NCBI GenBank assembly: GCA_030647555.1
Contig: JAUSJG010000008.1
Span: 1,467 to 65,466 of the forward strand
DNA: 64,000 bases
DNA from: a bacterium
GTDB lineage: Bacteria > Patescibacteriota > Andersenbacteria > UBA10190 > CAIZMI01
Direction of reading: 5' to 3'
Position 1 is the first letter of the stretch. Each line of letters opens with the position of its first letter. A program made the translations under genes and the position numbers. The notes under the pieces are model-generated. The model ran no database searches. It was not told the DNA's origin and saw only the letters and a program-made list of their open reading frames with translations. Positions 8,973 through 63,843 of this stretch are shown here, piece by piece.

Positions 8973-9043
8973 GGGTGTCGGGAGAAGGTGGTGTAATTTT
9001 TATGAGCACCTTTTTTAATAAGAGCTCTTTCTGAGTTCAGATT

Positions 9044-9186
9044 TGTATATGGTATTTAGTATATAGTATATGGATTTACAATGTTTGGTGGTAAGATAAT
9101 TTTTTGCGGTTGACTAATCATTGGTCGGAACTTTACAAAACAACATCGGACAATAATTCCATATACCATACACTAAATACTATACG
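9044..9186. mobile_element. MITE-like element, family 1, copy 1
   Basis: Left terminus tgtatatggtatttagtatatagtatatggattta. Right terminus aattccatataccatacactaaatactatacg (inverted). The internal sequence is homologous to copy 2. Confidence 0.7.
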
Positions 9187-12686: not shown

Positions 12687-12789
12687 CGCTTTTACAAAAT
12701 GTGTCCGTATCCAGTAATTATTTTGTCTTTCTTGCTTCTTGTTCGAAAATTATTTATTCTATTATAGTCAAAGGAGGACGGCGTTCCGA

Positions 12790-12850
12790 CTTCCGATATC
12801 CCGCCCATCTGGGCGAGGCTCGCCCTGAGGGGCGGCTGACTTCCGATCTC
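12790..12850. repeat. GC-rich REP-like hairpin unit (family 3) flanked by 10-bp direct repeat gacttccgat
   Basis: cccgcccatctgggcgaggctcgccctgaggggcgg. Related units lie at 26497-26540 and, as two tandem inverted copies, at 50670-50770. Confidence 0.6.
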
Positions 12851-12857
12851 CTCGTAC

Positions 12858-12957
12858 GGCCTCATCGTCTAACGGCTAGGACGAAGCGTTCTCAACGCTT
12901 AAATCGGAGTTCGCCCGCCAAAACGGCGGGCGCCCGCTGAAATAGCGGGCGATTCTC
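12858..12957 (+). pseudogene. truncated duplicate of tRNA-Glu (nt 1-56) with two GC hairpins inserted in the T-arm
   Basis: 12858-12913 matches the first 56 nt of the tRNA at 13011. Then follow cccgccaaaacggcggg and cgcccgctgaaatagcgggcg, then attctc. No 3' acceptor strand is present. Confidence 0.55.
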
Positions 12958-13010
12958 TAGTATGATTTTGCAATAGACAACCGCAAGAAAACAGATAAAA
13001 CTGTAAATAC

Positions 13011-13085
13011 GGCCTCATCGTCTAACGGCTAGGACGAAGCGTTCTCAACGCTTAAATCGGAGTTCGATTCTCCGTGAGGCTACCA
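13011..13085 (+). tRNA. tRNA-Glu (anticodon CUC), CCA encoded
   Basis: Manual fold: 7-bp acceptor stem with a G1:U wobble, D-arm gtct/ggac, anticodon stem aagcg/cgctt, loop ttCTCaa, T-arm cggag-ttcgatt-ctccg, discriminator A then CCA. Confidence 0.7.
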
Positions 13086-13771: not shown

Positions 13772-13994
13772 TAATATAAGTATATAGTGAGAGAAAAAAT
13801 AAATCCAAAGCTGGAGTTTGGAAATAATTTTTCAGTCTCCAATTTGAAATTTGAAATCAATTTTTAATATCTAAATTTGAAATACGAACGCGTTTTTCAA
13901 ATTAATTTATTACGATATTTCAAATTTCAAATTAAAAATTCACAAAATAAGATTGCTTTTCTACTGATGTATTTATAACAGTATGGTCTTCTCT

Positions 13995-17096: not shown

Positions 17097-17151
17097 AAAT
17101 TGATATTATTAGGATTTAGTTGATAAATAATACTTTTGAGGGATTTAGATT

Positions 17152-17298
17152 TGTATATTGTATTTGGTATATAGTATATGGGTTTATTGACAATAAATCG
17201 TAAGATATTGTTTTGCGGCTGATTATTTCTTGGTCGGAATTTTATATTACAACTTTGGGATAATAATTCAATATACTATATACTAAATACTATATACA
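17152..17298. mobile_element. MITE-like element, family 1, copy 2
   Basis: tgtatattgtatttggtatatagtatatgggttta ... aattcaatatactatatactaaatactatataca. Internal homology to copy 1 (ttttgcggctga...ttggtcggaa). Confidence 0.7.
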
Positions 17299-17361
17299 AA
17301 GAGCTACTGGAGTTTGCCGCGCCCATGCACCACAAGGGTGCAGGGCTCGCAAAGACTGATG

Positions 17362-17811
17362 CTATACGCGGTGTTTCTTGCGACGCAACTCTGCTACCTT
17401 AAGTCTCGCCATACTCTGTTCTATCACCGACGTTGCTTCGGCAAGTGATACCTGATCCTTGGCAGTCTTTTGCATTTCCATTGCACGTTCCAGTGCTTCT
17501 TTGGCGTGCATTTCGTTGATGTCTTCGGCTCTCTCTGCTGTGTCGGCTAAAAGGCGGGCGCGTTTTCCATCGATTTCCATTAAGCCACCGGATGTTGCTA
17601 GGTGTTCGAGATTCGCATCAGGATCGCCTTCTTTTTTTCGAACGGAAATTACGCCAGGTGTCACAATATTTATTAACGGCATGTGGTGCGGGAAGATTCC
17701 TATTTGTCCATTTGGTGTTGGCACCAGGATCTCATATACATCTTCCTGTAACTTGAGTCCTTCCGGCGTAACTAATTCGAATGATATTGAAGTCATGTGA
17801 AAAATTTTCAA
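17362..17811 (-). CDS. atpC: F-type ATP synthase epsilon subunit
   Basis: Last gene of the atp operon. Epsilon-like beta-sandwich N-terminus and helical C-terminus. Confidence 0.8.
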   Translation of the reverse strand: MKIFHMTSISFELVTPEGLKLQEDVYEILVPTPNGQIGIFPHHMPLINIVTPGVISVRKKEGDPDANLEHLATSGGLMEIDGKRARLLADTAERAEDINEMHAKEALERAMEMQKTAKDQVSLAEATSVIEQSMARLKVAELRRKKHRV

Positions 17812-17929
17812 TTATCAATTGCCAATTATCAATGAATTATCAATTCTTAAATTATCAAACGACGACGTCGAAAATTGATCATTGAGCCATTTGATAATTA
17901 ATTGAAAATTGGTCATTGAAAATTGATAA

Positions 17930-17931
<2 letters not shown>
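17800..17931. mobile_element. MITE-like element, family 2 (aattatcaat palindrome), copy a, inside atp operon between atpD and atpC
   Basis: Terminal inverted repeats aattttcaattatcaat ... attgataattatt. The centre is cgacgacgtcg. Homologous copies lie at 25517-25650 and 39358-39496. Confidence 0.65.
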
Positions 17932-19345
<1,414 letters not shown>

Positions 19346-20299: not shown

Positions 20300-20338
20300 G
20301 ACGGGGAATTATGAATGACGAATGATGATTGATGAGAA

Positions 20339-24787: not shown

Positions 24788-24929
24788 AATTAGCCCCTTA
24801 TTCATTTGTTGAGCACAGAACAACCAACAACGACCGACACCACAACATAATATAGTTACCCAAAAATTGCAACCGATCAGGGTCGGACCCTGATAAGCTT
24901 CATCATTCATCAATCATTATTCATCATTC

Positions 24930-24969
24930 GCAAAAAGAAACAGCCCCTCGGGGCTGTTTTCTTTTTGCT
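24930..24969 (-). terminator. rho-independent (bidirectional-type) terminator downstream of 24977..25267
   Basis: aaacagccccgaggggctgttt, with T-runs on both sides. Confidence 0.65.
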
Positions 24970-25267: not shown

Positions 25268-25516
25268 AGAGAATTCACCTACTTTCGTTTCGTAAATATA
25301 ATCGAGGTTTTTCCTTCGCTCTAACGCTATGGACGCTCTCGACCTTATCTACGCTTTTCGAACTCTCTTTTAACCGAGATCGCTAGTACGTTTCTTTGGT
25401 CTGCTACGTCTGCTATTTGAGGAGTATTTACCCCGTGACGAAAATATAGCATAGGGGGTGGAAAAAAGCAAATTGACAATGAAAACCCTGAGACCAAGCA
25501 ATACCTATCATCCTTA

Positions 25517-25650
25517 AAATTATCAATTTTCAATGACCAATTATCAATTAATTATCAATTAATTATCAATGCTTAAATTATCAAACTTCGGCCGTTGCAT
25601 TTGAAAATTATAAAAATTGATCATTAATTGATAATTGAAAATTGACCATT
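25517..25650. mobile_element. MITE-like element, family 2, copy b
   Basis: aattttcaatgaccaattatcaat ... attgataattgaaaattgaccattgaaaatt. Confidence 0.65.
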
Positions 25651-25779
25651 GAAAATTTTACATGGTTATTTTTTGGGAGAATTTGAATATTCATATTTGT
25701 TCTATCTTCATGTAATTTGTCTTATACTTACCTTGTCCTTTTCCACAACCGAATAGGAACCGTTTGAAAGGAGCTGACG

Positions 25780-26496: not shown

Positions 26497-26540
26497 CGGA
26501 GCGACGTGGCCGCCCATCTGGGCGAGCTTCGCCCTGAAGG
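26497..26540. repeat. GC-rich REP-like hairpin unit (family 3)
   Basis: gccgcccatctgggcgagcttcgccctgaagggcgggg. Confidence 0.55.
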
Positions 26541-26547
26541 GCGGGGA

Positions 26548-29246: not shown

Positions 29247-29302
29247 TGTTGAAGCAAGAAGTTGATTTAAATAGTGAAACTACGCGCACAACACAGCTTT
29301 TT

Positions 29303-29451
29303 TGTATATCGTATTTGGTATATGGTATATGGATTTAGTATGTTGGGATGTGTCGTCAAGTTTTTCGATGAAATTAACTTTAAAATGTAATACTTAATTT
29401 TGACGGATATTTTTCTGAACCCCATATACTATATACTAAATACCACATACA
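29303..29451. mobile_element. MITE-like element, family 1, copy 3 (between ABC permease and ATPase genes)
   Basis: tgtatatcgtatttggtatatggtatatggattta ... ccccatatactatatactaaataccacatacaa. Confidence 0.7.
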
Positions 29452-29457
29452 AAAATA

Positions 29458-39357: not shown

Positions 39358-39496
39358 AAAAAATTTTCAATGATCAATTCCCAATTTTCAATTAATTATC
39401 AAACGACTTAATTATCAATTGACGACGTCGCCTTTTGATAATTTAAGAATTGGTCATTAATTGATAATTGACCATTGAAAATTGATAATTATCAAG
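39358..39496. mobile_element. MITE-like element, family 2, copy c
   Basis: aaaattttcaatgatcaattcccaattttcaat ... attgataattgaccattgaaaattgataatt. Centre cgacgtcg. Confidence 0.65.
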
Positions 39497-43248: not shown

Positions 43249-43438
43249 ATCTGTAGTTTGTATATAGTATATGGTATATAGTATATTAATTTTAGGGGCC
43301 TTCATTTTTCGTTGTGGTTAATTCAGACCGTGAATCTGGTCGTAAATTTATTTTTCACGCGCGCTACTAAATTCGATTTTAGAAGGTGGTAATTTGTAGT
43401 TAATAATTCCATATACTATATACCAAATACAATATACT
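43249..43438. mobile_element. MITE-like element, family 1, copy 4
   Basis: tgtatatagtatatggtatatagtatattaat ... taataattccatatactatataccaaatacaatatacta. Confidence 0.7.
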
Positions 43439-43440
43439 AA

Positions 43441-45381: not shown

Positions 45382-46530
45382 ATGACTAAAATTGCCTATA
45401 TTACAAACGCGCCGCCACAAGCAGGGATGGGGAAACCGGCACGAGAGATTTATAGCAGAATTAACCCCCCCCTTAGTCCCCCCTTGAATAATGGGGGATA
45501 CGTGGCGGATTTCTTTTATCTCGATGCCAGTAAAAGAGAACTATTAAAAAATGATGTAAAAATCGCGGAAGTGAGCAATCTGCCAAAACCTTTACAGTTG
45601 AAACCGATTCAGTGGTGGCGTCTGGCGCGTCAATTACCCACAGAAGGTTATGACCTTTGGCACATTACAAATCAGACGTTGTCGTTTATTCCACGGCAAG
45701 ATTTTCTATTGACTGTTTATGATTTGATTGAACTATTGGAACCGCAAGAAAAATTTGGGAAATACGTTGCGCAATATCTATACAAAGGAATTCCTAAGGC
45801 GAAACACATTATTTGTATCTCGGAATATACCAAAAAGATGTTACAGCAAGCCTACGCCGTACCTGATGAAAAAATCACCATTATCCCGTTGGGGGTTGGG
45901 GAACATTTCAAACCAATCGAAGGGGTACGAGAAAGTATCGCCTATCATGAACTGCTGGCGCAAAATAATTTACCGAAAGACGCGAAAATCATTTTGTATG
46001 TCGGGTCGGATCATCCGCGTAAAAACTTGAATTTGCTGGCCGGGGTTTTGACGAAAGTTAAAGCGCGGGTGCCAAACGCGTATTTGGTGAAAGTGGGTGA
46101 CCCTGGTCTAATGGCGGGTCGTATCGATTTTCAAGATAAATTAGCCGAACTGGGGCTAACTGATGCTGTGCGCTTCATTAGCAATGTCGGTGATGAAAAA
46201 TTACGTTTATTGTATGCATCAGCGGATGTCTTCGTTTTTCCGTCTTTCTATGAAGGTTTTGGGATCCCACCATTAGAAGCGATGGCGTGCGGAACGCCGG
46301 TTGTTTGCTCCAATGCCACTAGTTTGCCGGAAGTAGTTGGGGACGCGGGGTTGTTGCATGATCCGACGGACGTTGAGGGTTTTGCCACGTCAATTACTAG
46401 GATTTTAACGGACACGAATTATTCTGCGGAGTTGAGTCGCAAAGGATTGGAAAGAAGCAAGATGTTTTCGTGGGAGGGGATTGCGCAAAAGACGGCGGAA
46501 GTGTATCGGAGAATGACGGCGAGTATTTAG
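45382..46530 (+). CDS. glycosyltransferase family 4
   Basis: [41 protein letters not shown]. Confidence 0.85.
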
Positions 46531-46535
46531 TATTT

Positions 46536-46666
46536 TGTATATAGTATATGGATTTATCAATAACAAACGTCGAGTGTTGTGTAGATGATATATATAGTTA
46601 AGGTTAAAAACAATTTACGAATGTTGTTGCTACTTCCATATACTATATACCAAATACAATATACAA
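46536..46666. mobile_element. MITE-like element, family 1, copy 5
   Basis: tgtatatagtatatggatttatc ... cttccatatactatataccaaatacaatataca. Confidence 0.7.
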
Positions 46667-46708
46667 AAATCTTGACGATAACGATGTAATATAATATGAT
46701 TAAACACG

Positions 46709-48589: not shown

Positions 48590-48646
48590 TTAAGACGTAT
48601 GTCTTTGCGAGGGGTATCAACCCCGAAGCAATCTCTAGAAATTCTT

Positions 48647-48784
48647 TGTATATAGTATTTGGTATATTGTATATGGAATTATTTTGTGAGATTGGCTTTC
48701 TACTGTTTCGGGAATATAAAACACTAGTGTCGCCTTACGTGGTTAAAGTTTGATAAATCAATATACTAAATACTATATACTAAA
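48647..48784. mobile_element. MITE-like element, family 1, copy 6 (ends 3 bp before MT start codon)
   Basis: tgtatatagtatttggtatattgtatatggaatta ... aatcaatatactaaatactatatactaaaac. Confidence 0.7.
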
Positions 48785-48787
48785 ACT

Positions 48788-49579
48788 ATGTACGCACTTG
48801 AAAAGTTCTATCCCAAAGGTTTTGACCCGGCACGTTACTGGGAGGATCGCTATGCGCAAGAACATGCGGCGGGAAAAAGTAGTGAAGAATACGCCAAACA
48901 AGAATTTTGGCCACTAATGGAAAAATATCTTTCTAAAGAAAAACTCTACTTGGATGCCGGCTGTGGAATTGGTGGCTGGATAATTTTCCTCAAAGAACAG
49001 GGCTACAACGTAGAGGGTATTGATATTGCAGCACGTACGCTTCGGGCGCTTATGGAATATGATCCTGATTTAAAACTTAAAATGGCGACGATGACTGGGA
49101 TTCCGTACACCGATAGTTCGCTGGATGGGCTACTGTCTATCGGAACATTGGAATATGTGAAAGACAAAGTCCCGGTTGCTTTAAAAGAAGTGAGTCGTGT
49201 CCTAAAGAAAGATGCTGTATTTTTTATGGAAGTGCCGATTGCAAATATATTGAGAAAAATAATTTATATTCCACTCAAAAAAATAGAGCGAATGATCAAG
49301 ATGTGGCAGGGGCTGACGCCAACGTTTAGTAATTATCTTTTTGATAAGGAAAACTTTCTTAATCTGCTCAGCGAAAATGGTTTTGAAGTATTAGAAGTAA
49401 AACCACATGAATTGCCAGACAGAGATAGTCATTATTGTTTGTATGTGGATTATCCTTTTCTGCGAGGTAAAGAGCCGTATAAATTGAATGTTCTAGGTAA
49501 GTTAATGAAAAAAGTAGCAAATGCCATCTCGCCATGGATCGCGTCGACTGGTATGGTGGTAGTGGCAAAAAAACTTTAG
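48788..49579 (+). CDS. class I SAM-dependent methyltransferase (paralog of 44466..45269)
   Basis: LDAGCGIGGWIIFLKEQGYNVEGID. Shares the C-terminal PHELPDRDSHYCLYVDYPFLRGKEPYKLN block with its paralog. Confidence 0.75.
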   Translation: MYALEKFYPKGFDPARYWEDRYAQEHAAGKSSEEYAKQEFWPLMEKYLSKEKLYLDAGCGIGGWIIFLKEQGYNVEGIDIAARTLRALMEYDPDLKLKMATMTGIPYTDSSLDGLLSIGTLEYVKDKVPVALKEVSRVLKKDAVFFMEVPIANILRKIIYIPLKKIERMIKMWQGLTPTFSNYLFDKENFLNLLSENGFEVLEVKPHELPDRDSHYCLYVDYPFLRGKEPYKLNVLGKLMKKVANAISPWIASTGMVVVAKKL

Positions 49580-50620: not shown

Positions 50621-50662
50621 GACCGTTCACGGAACGGAGCAACCCTGCTCCGTTCCGTGAAC
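50621..50662. repeat. 19-bp-stem hairpin, member of a 2-copy hairpin family (other copy 56928-56967)
   Basis: ccgttcacggaacggagca accc tgctccgttccgtgaacgg. Confidence 0.55.
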
Positions 50663-50669
50663 GGTGCAG

Positions 50670-50770
50670 AGTTCCGACGTCCCGCCCTTTAGGGCGAGGC
50701 TCGCCCCGATGGGCGGCCGATTCCCGATTTCCCGCCCTTCAGGGCGAGGCTCGCCCCGATGGGCGGCTGA
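50670..50770. repeat. two tandem GC-rich REP-like units (family 3, inverted relative to 12802-12836)
   Basis: cccgccctttagggcgaggctcgccccgatgggcgg, then cccgcccttcagggcgaggctcgccccgatgggcgg. Confidence 0.6.
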
Positions 50771-50772
50771 CC

Positions 50773-51717
50773 TCAGACTTTTGGCCACTTGGCCGGATCT
50801 ACTTGCATTGGGTCTTCGATTGCTAGTTCTCGGAGTTTAACTAAAACATCATCTGGTAATGGTCCTGCGGAAACCGCGGCAACCATTCCGGCAATACGTT
50901 CCGGTTTTGTTGTGCCCATCAAGGCCGTGGAAACGGCGGGGTTACTAATTACAAAGCGCATCGCAAGCGTTGGTAAATCCATTCCCAACTCCGTCGCAAT
51001 TTTTTCGGCTTGACGAGAATTTTCTTTTAATACCGAAAGTTGCTCCGGCAGTTGTTCTCGGCGCGTTGGTGTAAGTGAGCCTTTCAGCAAAACAGATCGG
51101 TTGATAATCCCCACATCGTTTTTCATCGCTTCTGTCATCACGTTGGCCACCATACGCTGATCCACAACACTGTGGGCCAGTTGCAGAGTCTCAAAAAAAT
51201 TAGTTTTAATGGCTACGAGGGGTGCTTCTTCACCGCGCGTGGAAATGCCGACGTGTTGAACTTTTCCAGAATTAATTAATTCGCGGAGGATGTCAGCGAT
51301 TTCACCGCGTTCGATTTGTTCGGCCGTAGCGTAATGTAGTTGTAGTAATTGCAGGGAATCGGTTTGCAGTTTTCTCAAACTTTCTTCGACATCGCCGACA
51401 ATTAGTTGTTTCAATTCGTCACCATGTGGATCGATGCCTTTTTCTAACGGCATGCCACACTTTGTGCCGATCACAATATCTGGAATTTTTCCAATACCGG
51501 ATTTGCCAATGCGTTCTTCAGATAGTCCATAACCGCGCGCGGTATCAATATAATTTATTCCCGCATCGATGGCTGTCTTCAGGATTGTAATAGCCGTTTG
51601 TTCGGATGGTACCTCTTTTTTGCCGATACCATACTCAAGACCAAGTTCGACTGTGCCTAAGCCAAGCACAGTGACTTCGAGTTCGGAACTTCCTAATTTC
51701 TTTTTTAATAGTGTCAT
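50773..51717 (-). CDS. aldo/keto reductase
   Basis: LGLGTVELG...IDTARGYG, the AKR catalytic tetrad region. Confidence 0.85.
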   Translation of the reverse strand: MTLLKKKLGSSELEVTVLGLGTVELGLEYGIGKKEVPSEQTAITILKTAIDAGINYIDTARGYGLSEERIGKSGIGKIPDIVIGTKCGMPLEKGIDPHGDELKQLIVGDVEESLRKLQTDSLQLLQLHYATAEQIERGEIADILRELINSGKVQHVGISTRGEEAPLVAIKTNFFETLQLAHSVVDQRMVANVMTEAMKNDVGIINRSVLLKGSLTPTRREQLPEQLSVLKENSRQAEKIATELGMDLPTLAMRFVISNPAVSTALMGTTKPERIAGMVAAVSAGPLPDDVLVKLRELAIEDPMQVDPAKWPKV

Positions 51718-54066: not shown

Positions 54067-54094
54067 GTAGATTAATATAAGCGAAAGCAATATT

Positions 54095-54237
54095 TGTATA
54101 TTGTATTTGGTATATAGTATATGGAATTATCGACTGTTGCGAAAATAAATTGGCAGATTGGGGCTATCTCTACCATCTGTGCTACATGAACGCTCGGATT
54201 AAATAAACCCATATACTAAATACTATATACAATATAC
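54095..54237. mobile_element. MITE-like element, family 1, copy 7
   Basis: tgtatattgtatttggtatatagtatatggaatta ... aacccatatactaaatactatatacaatatact. Confidence 0.7.
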
Positions 54238-54257
54238 TGGTAAAAGACTTCAGTCTT

Positions 54258-56927: not shown

Positions 56928-56967
56928 CCGATCACGGAACGGAGCAATCTTGCTCCGTTCCATGATC
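56928..56967. repeat. hairpin repeat (second copy of 50621-50662 family)
   Basis: ccgatcacggaacggagca atct tgctccgttccatgatcgg. Confidence 0.55.
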
Positions 56968-57017
56968 GGTGTTGGTTCGTTGCTGGCAGAAAAAGAAATA
57001 AAGAGTATAACTAAGAA

Positions 57018-58335: not shown

Positions 58336-58398
58336 GGATAGAAGATTTTTTGGGTTTATTAACCTTTGGTTTCTTTGGGGTTGTTACGCTTACCTCTT

Positions 58399-58857
58399 TG
58401 TATATGGTATTTAGTATATAGTATATGGATTTATTGACTCTGTTCTGGTTTTGAGTTTGAACTCCTTATTAGGCCGTTTATTAGTTTTGACACATCAACG
58501 GTTTTCTTTGCGATGGTGTTAAAATCATCCTTTGTTATATAACCCAAATCTCGACAAATGATGTATTGGTTTTGAAGTTCTGTTAGGGATCCTTTTGCAA
58601 TCGCATAAAACTGTTGTTTGTCTCGTTTTGTGTTTCGACTAAATCCTTCGGCAATGTTAGAAGAAACAGATACCGCGGCTCTTCTCATTTGACTAGTTAG
58701 TCCAAATATTTCTTCTTTTGGAAATGATTTGGATATTTTGTAGGTCATTAGCACTAATGCGTGGCTTTCTCTCCAAGCATCTAAATGCGTAAAAGATGTG
58801 ATTTTGTTTGTGTTTGATAAATCCATATACTATATACCAAATACCATATACAAAAAA
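58399..58857. mobile_element. family-1 element carrying a gene: termini of the MITE family flanking a four-helix-bundle protein gene
   Basis: Left terminus tgtatatggtatttagtatatagtatatggattta at 58399-58433. Right terminus aaatccatatactatataccaaataccatatacaa at 58820-58855. The gene's ATG GAT TTA start lies within the terminus. Confidence 0.65.
58431..58826 (-). CDS. four-helix-bundle protein (23S rRNA intervening-sequence protein family, TIGR02436-like)
   Basis: WRESHALVLMTYKISKSFPKEEIFGLTSQMRRAAVSVSSNIAEGFSR...AKGSLTELQNQ matches the family pattern ...FPKEE.YGLTSQLRRAAVSIPSNIAEG...ARGSL.EL. Confidence 0.75.
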   Translation of the reverse strand: MDLSNTNKITSFTHLDAWRESHALVLMTYKISKSFPKEEIFGLTSQMRRAAVSVSSNIAEGFSRNTKRDKQQFYAIAKGSLTELQNQYIICRDLGYITKDDFNTIAKKTVDVSKLINGLIRSSNSKPEQSQ

Positions 58858-58880
58858 TTTTATTGAGCAGTGGATGCTGT

Positions 58881-59594
58881 TTATTTTAGGTGGTGTCTAT
58901 TGAACCGAATCGCCCACACCAACCACAGAGCCTCCCAAATTATTGACTTACTGATTTTTGATTTGCCTACTCTTCTATCAATAAACACGATTGGCATTTC
59001 GGAAATTTTTGCTTTGAGGGCGGATGCACGGGAATTCATTTCAATTTGAAAACCATAACCATCGGCATGAACGGTAGCAAGATTCATTTTCTTCAACAAC
59101 TCTGTTCTCCAGCACTTAAAACCGCCTGTGAGATCCGAAATTGGAACGCCAGTTACTAGGCGTGCATAGATATTGGCCCACTGGCTTAAAAGCCTGCGAT
59201 TGGTTTTCCAGTCGGAGACTTTTCCACCTTGCATATAACGTGAACCAATAACTAAATCGGTGGTTTTAATTTTATTTACAAATCGCAGGATATCGTTTGG
59301 GTCGTGCGAAAAATCCGCGTCCATCTGGATAATTGTATCGGCACCACGATTGATCGCCTCTTGAAAACCGGCCAAGTATGCACGCCCGAGACCCTCTTTT
59401 TTCGCGCGATTAAACAATGAAACTGGAGGAAATTTTTGTGAATAAGATTGAACGATTTGGCCGGTACCATCGGGTGAAGAATCATCAACCACGAGAATTG
59501 ATAGGTCCGGAATCTGTAATCCAATAATTGTCTCAATTAAATTACCGATATTTTCCTTTTCATTATATGTCGGTATTACAACTGTAGTTTTCAT
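58881..59594 (-). CDS. GT2 polyprenol-phosphate mannosyltransferase (Dpm1/PpmS-like)
   Basis: VVIPTYNEKENI...VVDDSSPDGT, DAD and QGGK motifs. ~237 aa. Confidence 0.8.
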   Translation of the reverse strand: MKTTVVIPTYNEKENIGNLIETIIGLQIPDLSILVVDDSSPDGTGQIVQSYSQKFPPVSLFNRAKKEGLGRAYLAGFQEAINRGADTIIQMDADFSHDPNDILRFVNKIKTTDLVIGSRYMQGGKVSDWKTNRRLLSQWANIYARLVTGVPISDLTGGFKCWRTELLKKMNLATVHADGYGFQIEMNSRASALKAKISEMPIVFIDRRVGKSKISKSIIWEALWLVWAIRFNRHHLK

Positions 59595-59597
59595 TTG

Positions 59598-59638
59598 AGA
59601 GAAAAGGTTAATAATTCCATATACTATATACTAAATAC
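59598..59638. repeat. solo family-1 right-terminus copy
   Basis: aataattccatatactatatactaaatactatatacaaata, in the same orientation as the terminus at 58820-58855. The two flank the GT2 gene. Confidence 0.6.
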
Positions 59639-59654
59639 TATATACAAATATTGA

Positions 59655-61899: not shown

Positions 61900-63486
61900 T
61901 TATTTTCGCTTAATTGCATAATACATTATTTCGCGAATTGTGCTGAATTCCGGCACGCGCAGCACATAGGCGGTAACTAAATAGGCCGTTAAGCCGAAAG
62001 TCGCACTACCCAGAATTGTCACGATATCGTTGGTAATGCCTGAAGTGAGTCCGCTGAAAATATGGCGACCCAGATAGGTGCCGGCAAACAGAACCGCACC
62101 GCTGATTAGTATTTTAAATAAACTGGTATCGGCAAAAATTGTCCAAAGATGCGGGACGCGTTTTGAAAGCCAGATCGCGTAAAGCGACGTTAAGATAAAC
62201 GGCGAAATCGCGGAACCTAATGCCAGTCCTTTTACACCTAACCGCGGAGCAAACACGTAAAAAAGTACCATGGTTAAACATTGCGTAATTATTGTGACAA
62301 CAACAGAAACGCGCGTCACTTTCATCGCGAGCGCAAGGTGACCGAGCAGTGAACTTAAGCCGTTTGCTAGAAGACCGAGTAAAAGAATTCCCAAAACGGC
62401 GGAGGTCATGCCCGTATCGATGGTGGTGAAAGAACCGCGTTCGTAAAGTAAACGAATGACGTTGGTGCGAAGAAGAACGATACCAATTGTAAGCGGAATG
62501 CCGAAGAAAACCATAAAACGAAACGCTTGTTTTGTTGTTTTTACAATCTCACTTTCCAAACCCGTGGCGACCGCGCGCGAGAAAGCGGGGAACGAAACAA
62601 CAACAATGTTGGCAAGAAAAAGACTGTTGGTCATCTGAGCAATTTTGTCACCAAACTTAAGCGCCGAAAGGGATCCCTCCGGAAAATGGGAAACCAAAAT
62701 GCGATAAACAATTCCCGCGCCTTGCGCGGCGATGATGCTTAAAATAAACGGAGAAACCAAAAGCAGTACTCGAATTAGGTCTGGATCGGTGAAAGAAAGA
62801 GTTGGGCGATAGGGCACGCCTTCACGATAAAGTGCCCAAAGAATTAATGATAATTGTAAGAGCCCGCCGATGAGCGCGCCAAACGCCAAAACGATAATGC
62901 CGTAGCGATCGGTCAAAAAGACGACGAAGAAAAAAGAAAGAAGTGGAGAAATGAGGCGCGCTGCCGCCGGCAAACCGAAAATGTGCAACGAATTAAGCAT
63001 TGATGCGCCTAAGTCTAAAAGCATCGTAAAAAAGAAGGCGGGCAACATGACGCGTAAAATTTCCACCGTGACGTGGTGTACCTCCGGCGAAAAACCGGGA
63101 GCAATAAATGAAACAATCGGATTGATAAACAATTCCAAGATAATCAAGGCGACCGTAAAAATAATCGCCGAGACATTAAATAAATTATTCGCCAGTTTCC
63201 AGGCGCGGTCCTGCTGGCCACCGGTTAAATATTCGACAAAAATGGGCAAAAAAACGGAAGTGATAGATCCACCGAGTAAAATTTTCGCCAAAAGTTCGGA
63301 AGTTCCCTGCGCCATAAAATAGGCGTCCGTACTACCGGAAGCGCCGAATTTATAGGCAATGGAAAGTTGCAGCAAAAAGCCCGCCAAAAGCGCTCCAACA
63401 GTAGAGATGCCGATGGCACCGCCCGCCCGCGCCGCCTTGAAAAGCGGGGGCGGTTTTATGACTGATTCCGTTGTGCGTGAATCCAT
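61900..63486 (-). CDS. murJ: lipid II flippase MurJ (MviN)
   Basis: GASGSTDAYFMAQGTSELLAKILLGGSITSVFLPIF is the MurJ N-terminal signature. 14 TM helices. Start moved to MDSRTTES because the upstream codons lie in the palindromic repeat. Confidence 0.8.
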   Translation of the reverse strand: MDSRTTESVIKPPPLFKAARAGGAIGISTVGALLAGFLLQLSIAYKFGASGSTDAYFMAQGTSELLAKILLGGSITSVFLPIFVEYLTGGQQDRAWKLANNLFNVSAIIFTVALIILELFINPIVSFIAPGFSPEVHHVTVEILRVMLPAFFFTMLLDLGASMLNSLHIFGLPAAARLISPLLSFFFVVFLTDRYGIIVLAFGALIGGLLQLSLILWALYREGVPYRPTLSFTDPDLIRVLLLVSPFILSIIAAQGAGIVYRILVSHFPEGSLSALKFGDKIAQMTNSLFLANIVVVSFPAFSRAVATGLESEIVKTTKQAFRFMVFFGIPLTIGIVLLRTNVIRLLYERGSFTTIDTGMTSAVLGILLLGLLANGLSSLLGHLALAMKVTRVSVVVTIITQCLTMVLFYVFAPRLGVKGLALGSAISPFILTSLYAIWLSKRVPHLWTIFADTSLFKILISGAVLFAGTYLGRHIFSGLTSGITNDIVTILGSATFGLTAYLVTAYVLRVPEFSTIREIMYYAIKRK

Positions 63487-63559
63487 GAGTAACTGTTGAA
63501 TAGAATAGCCCAAAAAGGCCCAAAAGTCTATTGAATTAAGGCTTGTTTTGAGTGTTTTT

Positions 63560-63843
63560 TGGGTCACACGCAATAGTGGGATACTGGAATAAACAGAATT
63601 AGCGTCAAACCACAGAAGACGGCGTCGTTACCCTCCTTTTTCAAATTGCACACGCTTTGGCGGTGTTTCGCCGATGCTCAAAGGGCGAGGGTGGATTAAG
63701 TTAAAAAACTGCGATGTTCTTATTGTCACAATCCCTCCCCGCCTTTAGTCCATCAGGGCAACACCGCCGAAGTGTGTGCAACCTTTAAATAAAGGGAGGA
63801 ATTGCTGTGTTTACCTCAAATGACCCACTATTGCGTGTGATCC
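63560..63843. repeat. ~280-bp nested palindromic element, copy B (full length), inverted relative to copy A at 1541-1805
   Basis: Outer arms gggtcacacgcaatagtggga (63562-63582) and atgacccactattgcgtgtgatcc (63820-63843). The inner ~60-bp arms are cctcctttttcaaattgcacacgctttggcggtgtttcgccgatgctcaaagggcgagg and its inverted copy. Confidence 0.7.

Follow-up and report, generated by a model that had tools for sequence, protein, structure and literature searches.

What is a gene of the 23S ribosomal RNA (rRNA) intervening-sequence (IVS) protein family doing between two protein-coding genes, and why do the repeats that enclose it recur without any gene nearby? We address this question in a 64,000-nt stretch of DNA (the window) from a bacterium of the Patescibacteria (Andersenbacteria; contig JAUSJG010000008.1), where a 457-bp unit with a 131-aa four-helix-bundle (4HB) gene lies between the genes for a GT2 glycosyltransferase and glutamate dehydrogenase (GDH). 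The nature of rRNA IVSs, and of the open reading frame (ORF) conserved in them, has been a puzzle since about 1990. The over-representation of heptamer repeats is reportedly another, raised for STRR sequences in 1990, and for the G-rich heptamers of Xanthomonas and Nostoc and for TAACTGA in 2015. We find it probable that the unit is a hairpin cassette of the S23p/IVS type, situated in the intergenic space of messenger RNA and accompanied by gene-less relatives. The results also suggest that IVS ORFs, heptamer over-representation and the missing repeat-binding protein are one phenomenon, in which a PF05635 gene and its inverted arrays make up one element, known as an IVS where it lies in rRNA, far commoner between protein genes, and leaving gene-less hairpins there.

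Cassette arms are tandem heptamer arrays

A preliminary description of the window had proposed that the termini of a family of short repeats also bound the 457-bp unit. This was borne out, as the left arm (TTTGTATATGGTATTTAGTATATAGTATATGGATTTAT) is the inverted complement of the right arm (Table 1). The arms are not ordinary terminal inverted repeats; they are tandem arrays of a 7-nt unit. Each holds four to five copies of GTATWTN with a conserved GTAT core, the left arm reading TTT GTATATG GTATTTA GTATATA GTATATG GATTTAT. Across the window (G+C content 43%) we counted 13 instances of the terminus pattern, compared with none in 100 shuffles. As had been noticed earlier, the ATG of the gene (58826-58824, minus strand) is part of the right arm; the TAA stop codon (58433-58431, minus strand), which had escaped notice, lies inside the left one.

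Profile searches placed the protein in the 4HB family of 23S rRNA IVS proteins, where it had been expected. It matched PF05635 (E = 3.3e-38, 130.6 bits, cut-off 33.8), which was the sole domain found, TIGR02436 (E = 7e-36, 122.7 bits, cut-off 24) and the structure 2GSC of Xanthomonas XCC0516 (E = 3.6e-24). Looking up its exact sequence gave no entry, although the protein is present in NCBI on a metagenome-assembled contig. The AlphaFold2 model (pLDDT 92) consists of four helices and superposes on 2GSC with an rmsd of 0.9 Å (TM scores 0.84/0.94), the next structural matches being 2RLD and Avd, a protein of diversity-generating retroelements (DGRs). Residues R49, S53, N57 and E60 are invariant or nearly so in the family alignment, in agreement with the R..S...N..E motif quoted for the family in PMC3936711. 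Both 2GSC and 2RLD contain five chains, and a pentamer is described for the family by Lin 2006, as cited in PMC4990558; we infer that the 131-aa protein would form a homopentameric toroid as well. The gene is under purifying selection (dN/dS = 0.08 against the orthologue in the relative L001). Between these two genomes its arms keep ~94% identity, even though the gene inside them differs at 62% of its synonymous sites.

The structural match to Avd could mean that the protein is an Avd accessory factor of a DGR. The fold does resemble that of Avd (4DWL), and there were weak matches to bAvd PF22296 (26 bits) and NF033474 (24 bits), but both scores are far under the respective cut-offs (40 and 80 bits), the gene is flanked by GT2 and GDH with no reverse transcriptase within a few kb, and the repeat search gave no template/variable repeat (TR/VR) pair. 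We consider this possibility negligible. What the window protein shares with Avd is the homologous 4HB fold and, probably, the pentameric assembly; being part of a ribonucleoprotein is a feature of Avd.

The sense RNA of the cassette folded, in both the minimum free energy and the centroid structure, with an uninterrupted 41-bp terminal stem (z = -9.8) that contains the AUG and the stop region. At gathering thresholds, Rfam matched only a tRNA-Glu in the whole window, and the cassette matched no known RNA family. Consensus scanning showed nothing like a promoter within the arms or within the 23-nt spacer next to GT2, and nothing like a terminator at the cassette (counts at or below shuffle expectation); we therefore reject a promoter or terminator role of the arms. 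A runs, not T runs, come after the cassette stems.

We compared the cassette with true S23p-encoding IVSs. The Coxiella IVS has a 28-bp terminal inverted-repeat stem that is cleaved by RNase III, as well as two to three GACAGAT heptamers and a degenerate copy that immediately precede the S23p ATG, the repeat number varying between strains (PMC4990558). ORFs of the 23S_rRNA_IVP type have also been reported in rRNA insertions of the Candidate Phyla Radiation (CPR; PMC11270868). On replicon AZO_p2 of Azospirillum lipoferum 4B we found an unannotated 4HB ORF within a 23S rRNA gene (RF02541, 1713 bits); its arms consist of five heptamers (CAGAGGA CGGATGA CAGAGGA CGGAGGA CAGAAAG) and their inverse. 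The window unit shares this anatomy, having an inverted stem made of heptamer arrays and an ORF that starts in the last heptamer. Like the IVSs of Coxiella burnetii (helix 45), Leptospira and A. lipoferum, it encodes a PF05635 protein between long terminal inverted repeats, has its tandem heptamers directly before the S23p start codon, measures ~430-460 nt, and is matched by short versions that lack the ORF.

The window unit differs from the rRNA IVSs in where it lies, outside any 23S rRNA gene (as judged from the Rfam scan and its neighbours), with its gene-less relatives in the intercistronic spacers of mRNAs. Furthermore, the ORF of Coxiella is regarded as a decaying frame that is not translated, unlike the window gene, which is under purifying selection. 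Mismatches between the arms of the Azospirillum IVS are mostly G.U, whereas those of intergenic cassettes are not. Excision by RNase III is proven for rRNA IVSs; for the window cassette the stem suggests it.

Table 1. Position of the cassette, its gene-less relatives and the adjoining gene in the window.
Feature	Position	Strand	Remarks
3' arm of cassette (relative to gene)	58397-58433		pairs with 58818-58857 in 41-bp stem
131-aa 4HB gene (PF05635 / TIGR02436, S23p family)	58431-58826	-	profile match; purifying selection
5' arm of cassette, inverted heptamer array holding ATG	58818-58857		repeat search and folding
GT2 polyprenol-phosphate glycosyltransferase (Dpm1-like)	58881-59594	-	resident gene between two insertion sites
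Solo arm: heptamer array and stop-end motif GGAATTATTAAC (as read on - strand)	59606-59650		11 nt upstream of GT2 ATG
Gene-less hairpin c1	9042-9186	+	start-type end at left; interior common to c2
Gene-less hairpin c2	17150-17300	+	just downstream of atpC
Gene-less hairpin c3	29301-29455	+	between ABC-transporter ATPase and permease genes
Gene-less hairpin c4	43250-43440	+	longer interior, degenerate left end
Gene-less hairpin c5	46520-46670	+	orthologous site in L106: 56-nt spacer without arrays
Gene-less hairpin c6	48645-48790	-	orthologous site in L106: 7-nt spacer
Gene-less hairpin c7	54093-54240	-	between convergent genes; L106 site: unrelated 142-nt palindrome

Gene-less relatives in the window

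Elements with GTATWTN arms, which we call family 1, include seven gene-less copies of 145-190 bp (c1-c7 in Table 1). When c6 and c7 are reverse-complemented all seven align, with a start-type end, ATGGATTTAT followed by C or T, and a stop-type end, TAATAATTCC, similar to the L001 orthologue's 3' end (CAATAATCCC). Homology among them is limited to the terminal ~45-55 nt; the interiors are mutually unrelated in five of the seven, c1 and c2 having theirs in common. According to the preliminary description, every such copy retained ATGGATTTA and looked like an internal-deletion derivative of the gene-carrying unit. The motif is exact in three of the seven and differs at one to three positions in the others. 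The idea of internal deletion fits the terminal segments, in which start- and stop-proximal ends are kept, but not the interiors, which are unlike 4HB coding sequence: no coding remnant exceeded shuffle level in the gene-less copies, except for about 16-20 nt of 5' coding sequence by the left arm of c5. The copies fold as long hairpins (z from -5 to -7, the exception being the plus strand of c4 with -2.6) and occupy intercistronic spacers, including ones inside the atp operon and an ABC-transporter operon.

The preference for seven nucleotides extends to the whole window, which contains 22 arrays of period 7, against 5, 2, 0, 0, 1 and 1 of periods 5, 6, 8, 9, 10 and 11, respectively. The family-1 arm motif is not unique to this lineage, as a metagenome scan returned the exact arm in 16 contigs, mostly as solo GTATATN arrays in unrelated contexts, with one 4HB gene.

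The short copies had been taken for miniature transposable elements with inverted repeats (MITEs). Accordingly, family 1 could be a classical non-autonomous transposon family moved in trans, with the 4HB gene a passenger of one enlarged copy. Terminal inverted repeats, multiple intergenic copies, the shared interior of c1 and c2 and presence/absence polymorphism at orthologous sites (see below) are all to be expected of such a family. However, no direct repeat of 4 bp or longer flanks any of the eight copies, even when shifts of the boundaries are allowed (the intergenic DNA of relatives is too diverged for base-exact alignment of empty sites), and most interiors are unrelated. No transposase with these ends was detected in Pfam scans of 24 of the 91 window ORFs (at least 100 aa) or adjoining the cassettes in the loci that we fetched. 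Moreover, the sole gene-bearing copy encodes a PF05635 protein, as do the 80 CPR loci and 16 plasmid loci described below; the heptamers serving as 'terminal inverted repeats' are wholly different between lineages and yet always come with the same gene family across phyla, which is unlike a passenger. Transposon ancestry is thus improbable, and the term MITE, in its transposon sense, does not apply.

Correia/NEMIS, ERIC/IRU, BOX and RUP elements are likewise imperfect palindromes of 100-200 bp in transcribed intergenic regions, variably present between relatives, and RNase III or RNase E is known to act on some palindromes of this type. Target duplications (TA or other) and uniform interiors mark Correia elements and true MITEs but are absent from the window copies, whose arms are internally periodic.

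Other heptamer repeats are present in the window. A second hairpin family (TTTTCAA TTATCAA TTGCCAA TTATCAA ... and inverse; 17800-17935, 25510-25660 and 39358-39490) has a short GC-rich centre, ACGACGACGTCG, and one copy lies between atpD and atpC. No cognate 4HB gene for these arms was found within the window; a divergent 4HB clade in L020 has CCAAT-type arms similar to them. Two solo GAATGAT-type arrays (20305-20336 and 24897-24930), inverted relative to each other, are separated by 4.5 kb: one occupies the spacer of atpA and atpG, the other the upstream end of the atp operon. Among 4HB cassettes of other Patescibacteria, arms of the GAATnnn type are the most common. A fourth heptamer hairpin (13823-13946; AATTTGA AATTTGA ... 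/ ATTTCAA ATTTCAA) lies between an ORF of unknown identity and the BipA/TypA gene.

Orthologous sites in relatives

By its proteins, the window has Microgenomates- or Moranbacteria-like bacteria as its closest relatives. Two relatives have cassettes of their own. In L001 the layout is that of the window (solo arm upstream of GT2, cassette downstream, same heptamers); the 4HB proteins are 81% and the GT2 proteins 84% identical. In L002, whose GT2 is 86% identical and whose synteny MurJ-385aa-364aa-GT2-GDH is kept, the cassette lies upstream of GT2, at the site of the solo arm in the window, and a gene-less hairpin lies downstream, at the cassette site. Both L002 elements are built of GTATGCN/GTATGTT units instead of GTATATN, and the 4HB protein is only 64% identical to that of the window, as opposed to 86-92% for the flanking proteins. 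Five other relatives (L103-L107; GT2 78-83% identical) maintain the order MurJ-387aa-35xaa-GT2(-GDH). In the ~70 kb sampled from them (10-20 kb per genome) we found neither a 4HB gene nor a period-7 array, and their junctions at both sites are 21-25 nt long, a plain terminator or overlapping genes. The solo-arm site is empty in L103, L105 and L106, the last being colinear with the window over 45-64 kb. Thus, in the sampled regions, the three genomes with the gene also have arrays, and the five without arrays lack the gene. Because the orthologous sites are empty in five relatives and the gene occupies the alternate site in L002, the cassette family is a lineage-specific gain that turns over.

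The preliminary description had also seen two direct copies of the right terminus around GT2 and proposed that the glycosyltransferase gene had been captured or rearranged, as in a composite element. The arrays on both sides of GT2 do have the same orientation. The outer one, however, is the solo arm of Table 1 (it had been placed at 59598-59638) and is a stop-codon-type end (TAATAATTCC), whereas the inner one is a start-codon end. The divergence of GT2 (84-86% aa) is like that of its neighbours, and in L002 both flanking sites are filled with the gene-bearing copy on the other side. In L103-L107, GT2 stands in the same synteny without arrays or 4HB gene, its junctions being 21-25 nt long or overlapping. 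This refutes capture, to which we give practically no credence. GT2 is a resident, vertically inherited gene that is not part of the element.

Different relatives have unrelated palindromic insertions at equivalent intergenic sites (L001 613-779, L002 479-681, L106 13375-13518); the MurJ site of the window consists of 15 nt. Intergenic hairpin elements of several kinds show fast turnover in this clade.

The same layout in other bacteria

The association of such termini with 4HB genes, implied by the preliminary description, holds beyond the window and the cassettes of L001 and L002. We analysed 80 Patescibacteria loci from a contig scan with 4HB alignment, chosen by similarity to the window protein (55-68% identity). 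Taking the 130 nt before and the 130 nt after each gene, we scored the best inverted repeat that the two flanks form with each other, and used 311 random 400-bp spans as a control. The median score was 17.25 at the 4HB loci and 8.0 in random spans, and 79% of the loci exceeded the 99th percentile of the control. In the 41 top-scoring loci, whose arm pairs were inspected, every pair consisted of tandem heptamers of the G(T/A)ATnnn type (for example GAATTAT, GTATTTA, CGTATAC and CGAATAC), usually overlapping the start and stop codons. The number of units per arm had its mode at five. Period-7 arrays numbered 366 in 1.2 Mb, against 7-76 for other periods; 143 of 388 arrays were at the ends of 4HB genes, and gene-less array pairs were present in these genomes as well.

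The heptamers go with the gene. The 5' and 3' arms of one gene were within one difference of each other in 57 of 75 cases, compared with 20% between genes, and paralogues of one genome carry different heptamers. Protein identity drops with heptamer distance (rho = -0.33, permutation P = 0.003). None of the 85 4HB genes in the CPR set was inside rRNA, all having long ORFs within a few tens of nucleotides, and 74 of the 85 were co-oriented with their upstream neighbour.

On plasmids of cyanobacteria, Bacteroidota and Azospirillum (Nostoc, Calothrix, Trichormus, Aulosira, Anabaena, Stanieria, Geminocystis, Picosynechococcus, Riemerella and Azospirillum), 14 of 16 4HB genes had inverted heptamer arrays at both ends, and the genes were wedged between cas10/cmr3, cas6/cas4, nrdB/nrdA and similar pairs. 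This bears on annotation: 4HB genes within cas, atp, nrd and other operons are insertions and not operon members, just as the 'MITEs' of this kind in CPR genomes are not transposon derivatives. As an exception in layout, a locus of Pseudanabaena galeata (L111; pPg_01 46268-46627, cas6-cas4) has direct arrays, AAAGCTA x14 upstream and AAAGCCA x9 downstream.

In Xanthomonas, the gene of the crystallised pentameric S23p itself is concerned. A GGGAATC x4 array overlaps the XCC0516 start codon; it is array #15 (GGGAATCGGGAGTGGAGAATCGGGAATC, -17) in the supplementary table of Rehm et al. 2015. The hundreds of heptamer arrays described by Rehm 2015 (Xanthomonas GGGAATC) and MacGregor 2015 (Beggiatoaceae TAACTGA) come with no mention of S23p, a four-helix bundle or IVSs. 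Together with STRR, GGGGA(C/T)T and the arrays at Nostoc recF/recO (bioRxiv 2022.06.06.494920), these resemble the arms studied here in the 7-nt unit, ~4 units per array, intergenic location, frequent convergent pairs, frequent position at or overlapping a start codon, and a unit number that varies between relatives. They differ in that those studies did not tie them to PF05635 genes, whereas the present arrays serve as arms of a PF05635 cassette. We did not find this association in the searchable literature beyond the Coxiella description; subscription journals are mostly uncovered by such a search, and a prior description is possible. The link between the window unit and rRNA IVSs is real and general, its generality outside CPR resting on the 16 plasmid loci, one row of the Xanthomonas table and the Coxiella paper.

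A locus of another Patescibacteria genome (L064; JAQUPS010000019.1, 8035-12437) contains four 4HB genes alternating with type IV pilin-like genes. Here CGTATTT/GAAATAC arrays extend into the 5' coding part of the pilins (MKIRNTKYEIRNT...), and gain or loss of units would therefore shift the pilin frame. It is possible that these arrays are a phase-variation switch of the pilins.

Expression and spread of the cassette

How would an IVS-type cassette between protein genes be expressed? The 4HB gene is probably transcribed by read-through from GT2, because it is co-oriented with GT2 directly upstream and no significant promoter-like site was found. By analogy with the IVSs of Coxiella, Leptospira and Salmonella, RNase III would cut the 41-bp stem. 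Such cleavage would detach the cassette RNA from the GT2 message, much as an IVS is removed from pre-23S rRNA, and might also expose the AUG. The gene-less hairpins would undergo like processing inside operon transcripts.

Spread of the elements is unlikely to be by cut-and-paste transposition, because there are no target-site duplications and no transposase. Recombination or conversion between arrays, or another array-directed process, may be responsible, and the S23p pentamer is possibly an array-binding factor in it. Recombination or conversion between arrays would explain that window and L002 have the same two sites filled but differ in heptamer flavour and in which of the sites holds the gene.

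Several observations weigh against this interpretation as an IVS-type cassette. A weak promoter-like site, not above shuffle expectation, is present 128 nt upstream, within GT2, and the orientation of the gene-less copies does not follow that of transcription consistently. Across the 80 elements the arms are only 83% complementary, and mismatches between them show no excess of G.U over A.C on the sense strand (64 versus 78). The succession of heptamer variants in one arm agrees only weakly with that in the other (0.784 versus 0.754, P = 0.017). Outside rRNA there is thus no signature of selection for pairing at the RNA level. Because of the 83% complementarity, the lack of a G.U excess and the weak match of unit order, what is selected there would seem to be the heptamer sequence and not pairing.

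Possible partnership of protein and arrays

A further reading, which we offer tentatively, is left in play by these caveats about pairing and by the five units per arm, the pentameric relatives and the flavours specific to paralogues. PF05635 proteins may be the cognate partners of bacterial tandem heptamer arrays, in a pairing like that of REPINs and RAYT. The arrays in question might, with the same reserve, comprise cyanobacterial STRR/GGGGAYT, Xanthomonas GGGAATC, Patescibacteria GTAT/GAAT and the stems of ORF-bearing rRNA IVSs. It is conceivable that the pentameric ring recognises about five 7-nt units, the flavour being specific to the lineage or paralogue, and that the protein controls or propagates start-codon arrays and intercistronic hairpins.

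A related possibility, which overlaps with the IVS-type cassette and does not exclude it, is that the arrays are operator-like sites of the S23p homopentamer, bound TRAP-like with one subunit per heptamer. The cassette would then be an autoregulated regulator gene, and gene-less hairpins and solo arrays near start codons would be its regulon or selfish decoys, the pair persisting like RAYT and REPINs. The most frequent arm length of five units matches the pentamers of crystallised family members (2GSC, 2RLD), but Xanthomonas arrays mostly have four units and those of Coxiella three to four. The homologue Avd is a pentamer within an RNA-protein complex (8UBE and others). Arm conservation far beyond neutral expectation without a wobble signature favours recognition of sequence over pairing; per RNA strand, however, the sense heptamer is on one arm only. 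That both arms of one gene share their heptamer, that paralogues have heptamers of their own and that protein and heptamer distances are correlated would all follow from recognition, but co-divergence is equally expected if gene and arms are inherited as one unit. Relatives without the gene have no arrays in ~70 kb, although few such relatives were sampled. Finally, overlap of an array with the start codon is seen in the window cassette and at XCC0516 and is general in Beggiatoaceae and Nostoc, and an unidentified heptamer-binding protein has been postulated by the authors of the Nostoc work (bioRxiv 2022.06.06.494920). On balance we regard binding of S23p to the arrays, and with it the operator role, as possible rather than likely.

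The REPIN-RAYT system has the same overall plan, with one gene flanked by short palindrome-forming repeats that are also dispersed as gene-less intergenic hairpin doublets without target duplications. As there, a genome-specific flavour of the repeat tracks the gene, which is seen in the window, in L002 with its own flavour at both sites, and in the paralogue-specific heptamers. The differences are that the gene encodes a 4HB protein, apparently pentameric, and not an HUH/Y1 transposase, and that the repeats are tandem heptamer arrays and not single REP hairpins. To our knowledge, no catalytic activity has been described for a 4HB protein of the S23p type. The window element is homologous in design to an S23p-encoding IVS, yet lacks the rRNA location, and is not a MITE, a RAYT system or a DGR.

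The pairing of gene and arrays recurs across phyla, and so it may explain the excess of 7-base tandem repeats in bacteria. These questions are testable, since XCC0516 is available in purified and crystallised form and both Nostoc and Xanthomonas can be manipulated genetically.

Other repeats in the window

A 59-nt segment identical to the 5' part of the tRNA-Glu(CUC) gene is present twice (12855-12913 versus 13008-13066), the additional copy being 153 nt upstream of the intact gene (13011-13085), with GC-rich hairpins in between. The arrangement resembles the scar left by insertion into the tRNA gene, or else a duplication of att type. The window further contains a GC-rich repeat family, CCGCCC-N4-GGGCGAGGCTCGCCC-N4-GGGCGG, at 12783-12851, 26510-26544 and 50664-50782 with flanking TTCCGAN heptamers; the copy at 50664-50782 is a tandem doublet, and the partial tRNA-Glu adjoins one of the copies. 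Another repeat, a 44-nt palindrome that is nearly perfect (CCGTTCACGGAACGGAGCAA..TTGCTCCGTTCCGTGAACGG), occurs twice, at 50623-50666 and 56928-56971, once just upstream of the glutamate dehydrogenase coding region. Near the window ends, an inverted repeat of ~108 nt (83% identity; 1616-1733 and 63637-63800) has its copies 62 kb apart. They lie upstream of the gene at 1717-2367 and of the MurJ-like gene at 61900-63573 and end in the Shine-Dalgarno-like AAAGGAGG; the repeat is possibly a shared leader or another palindromic element.

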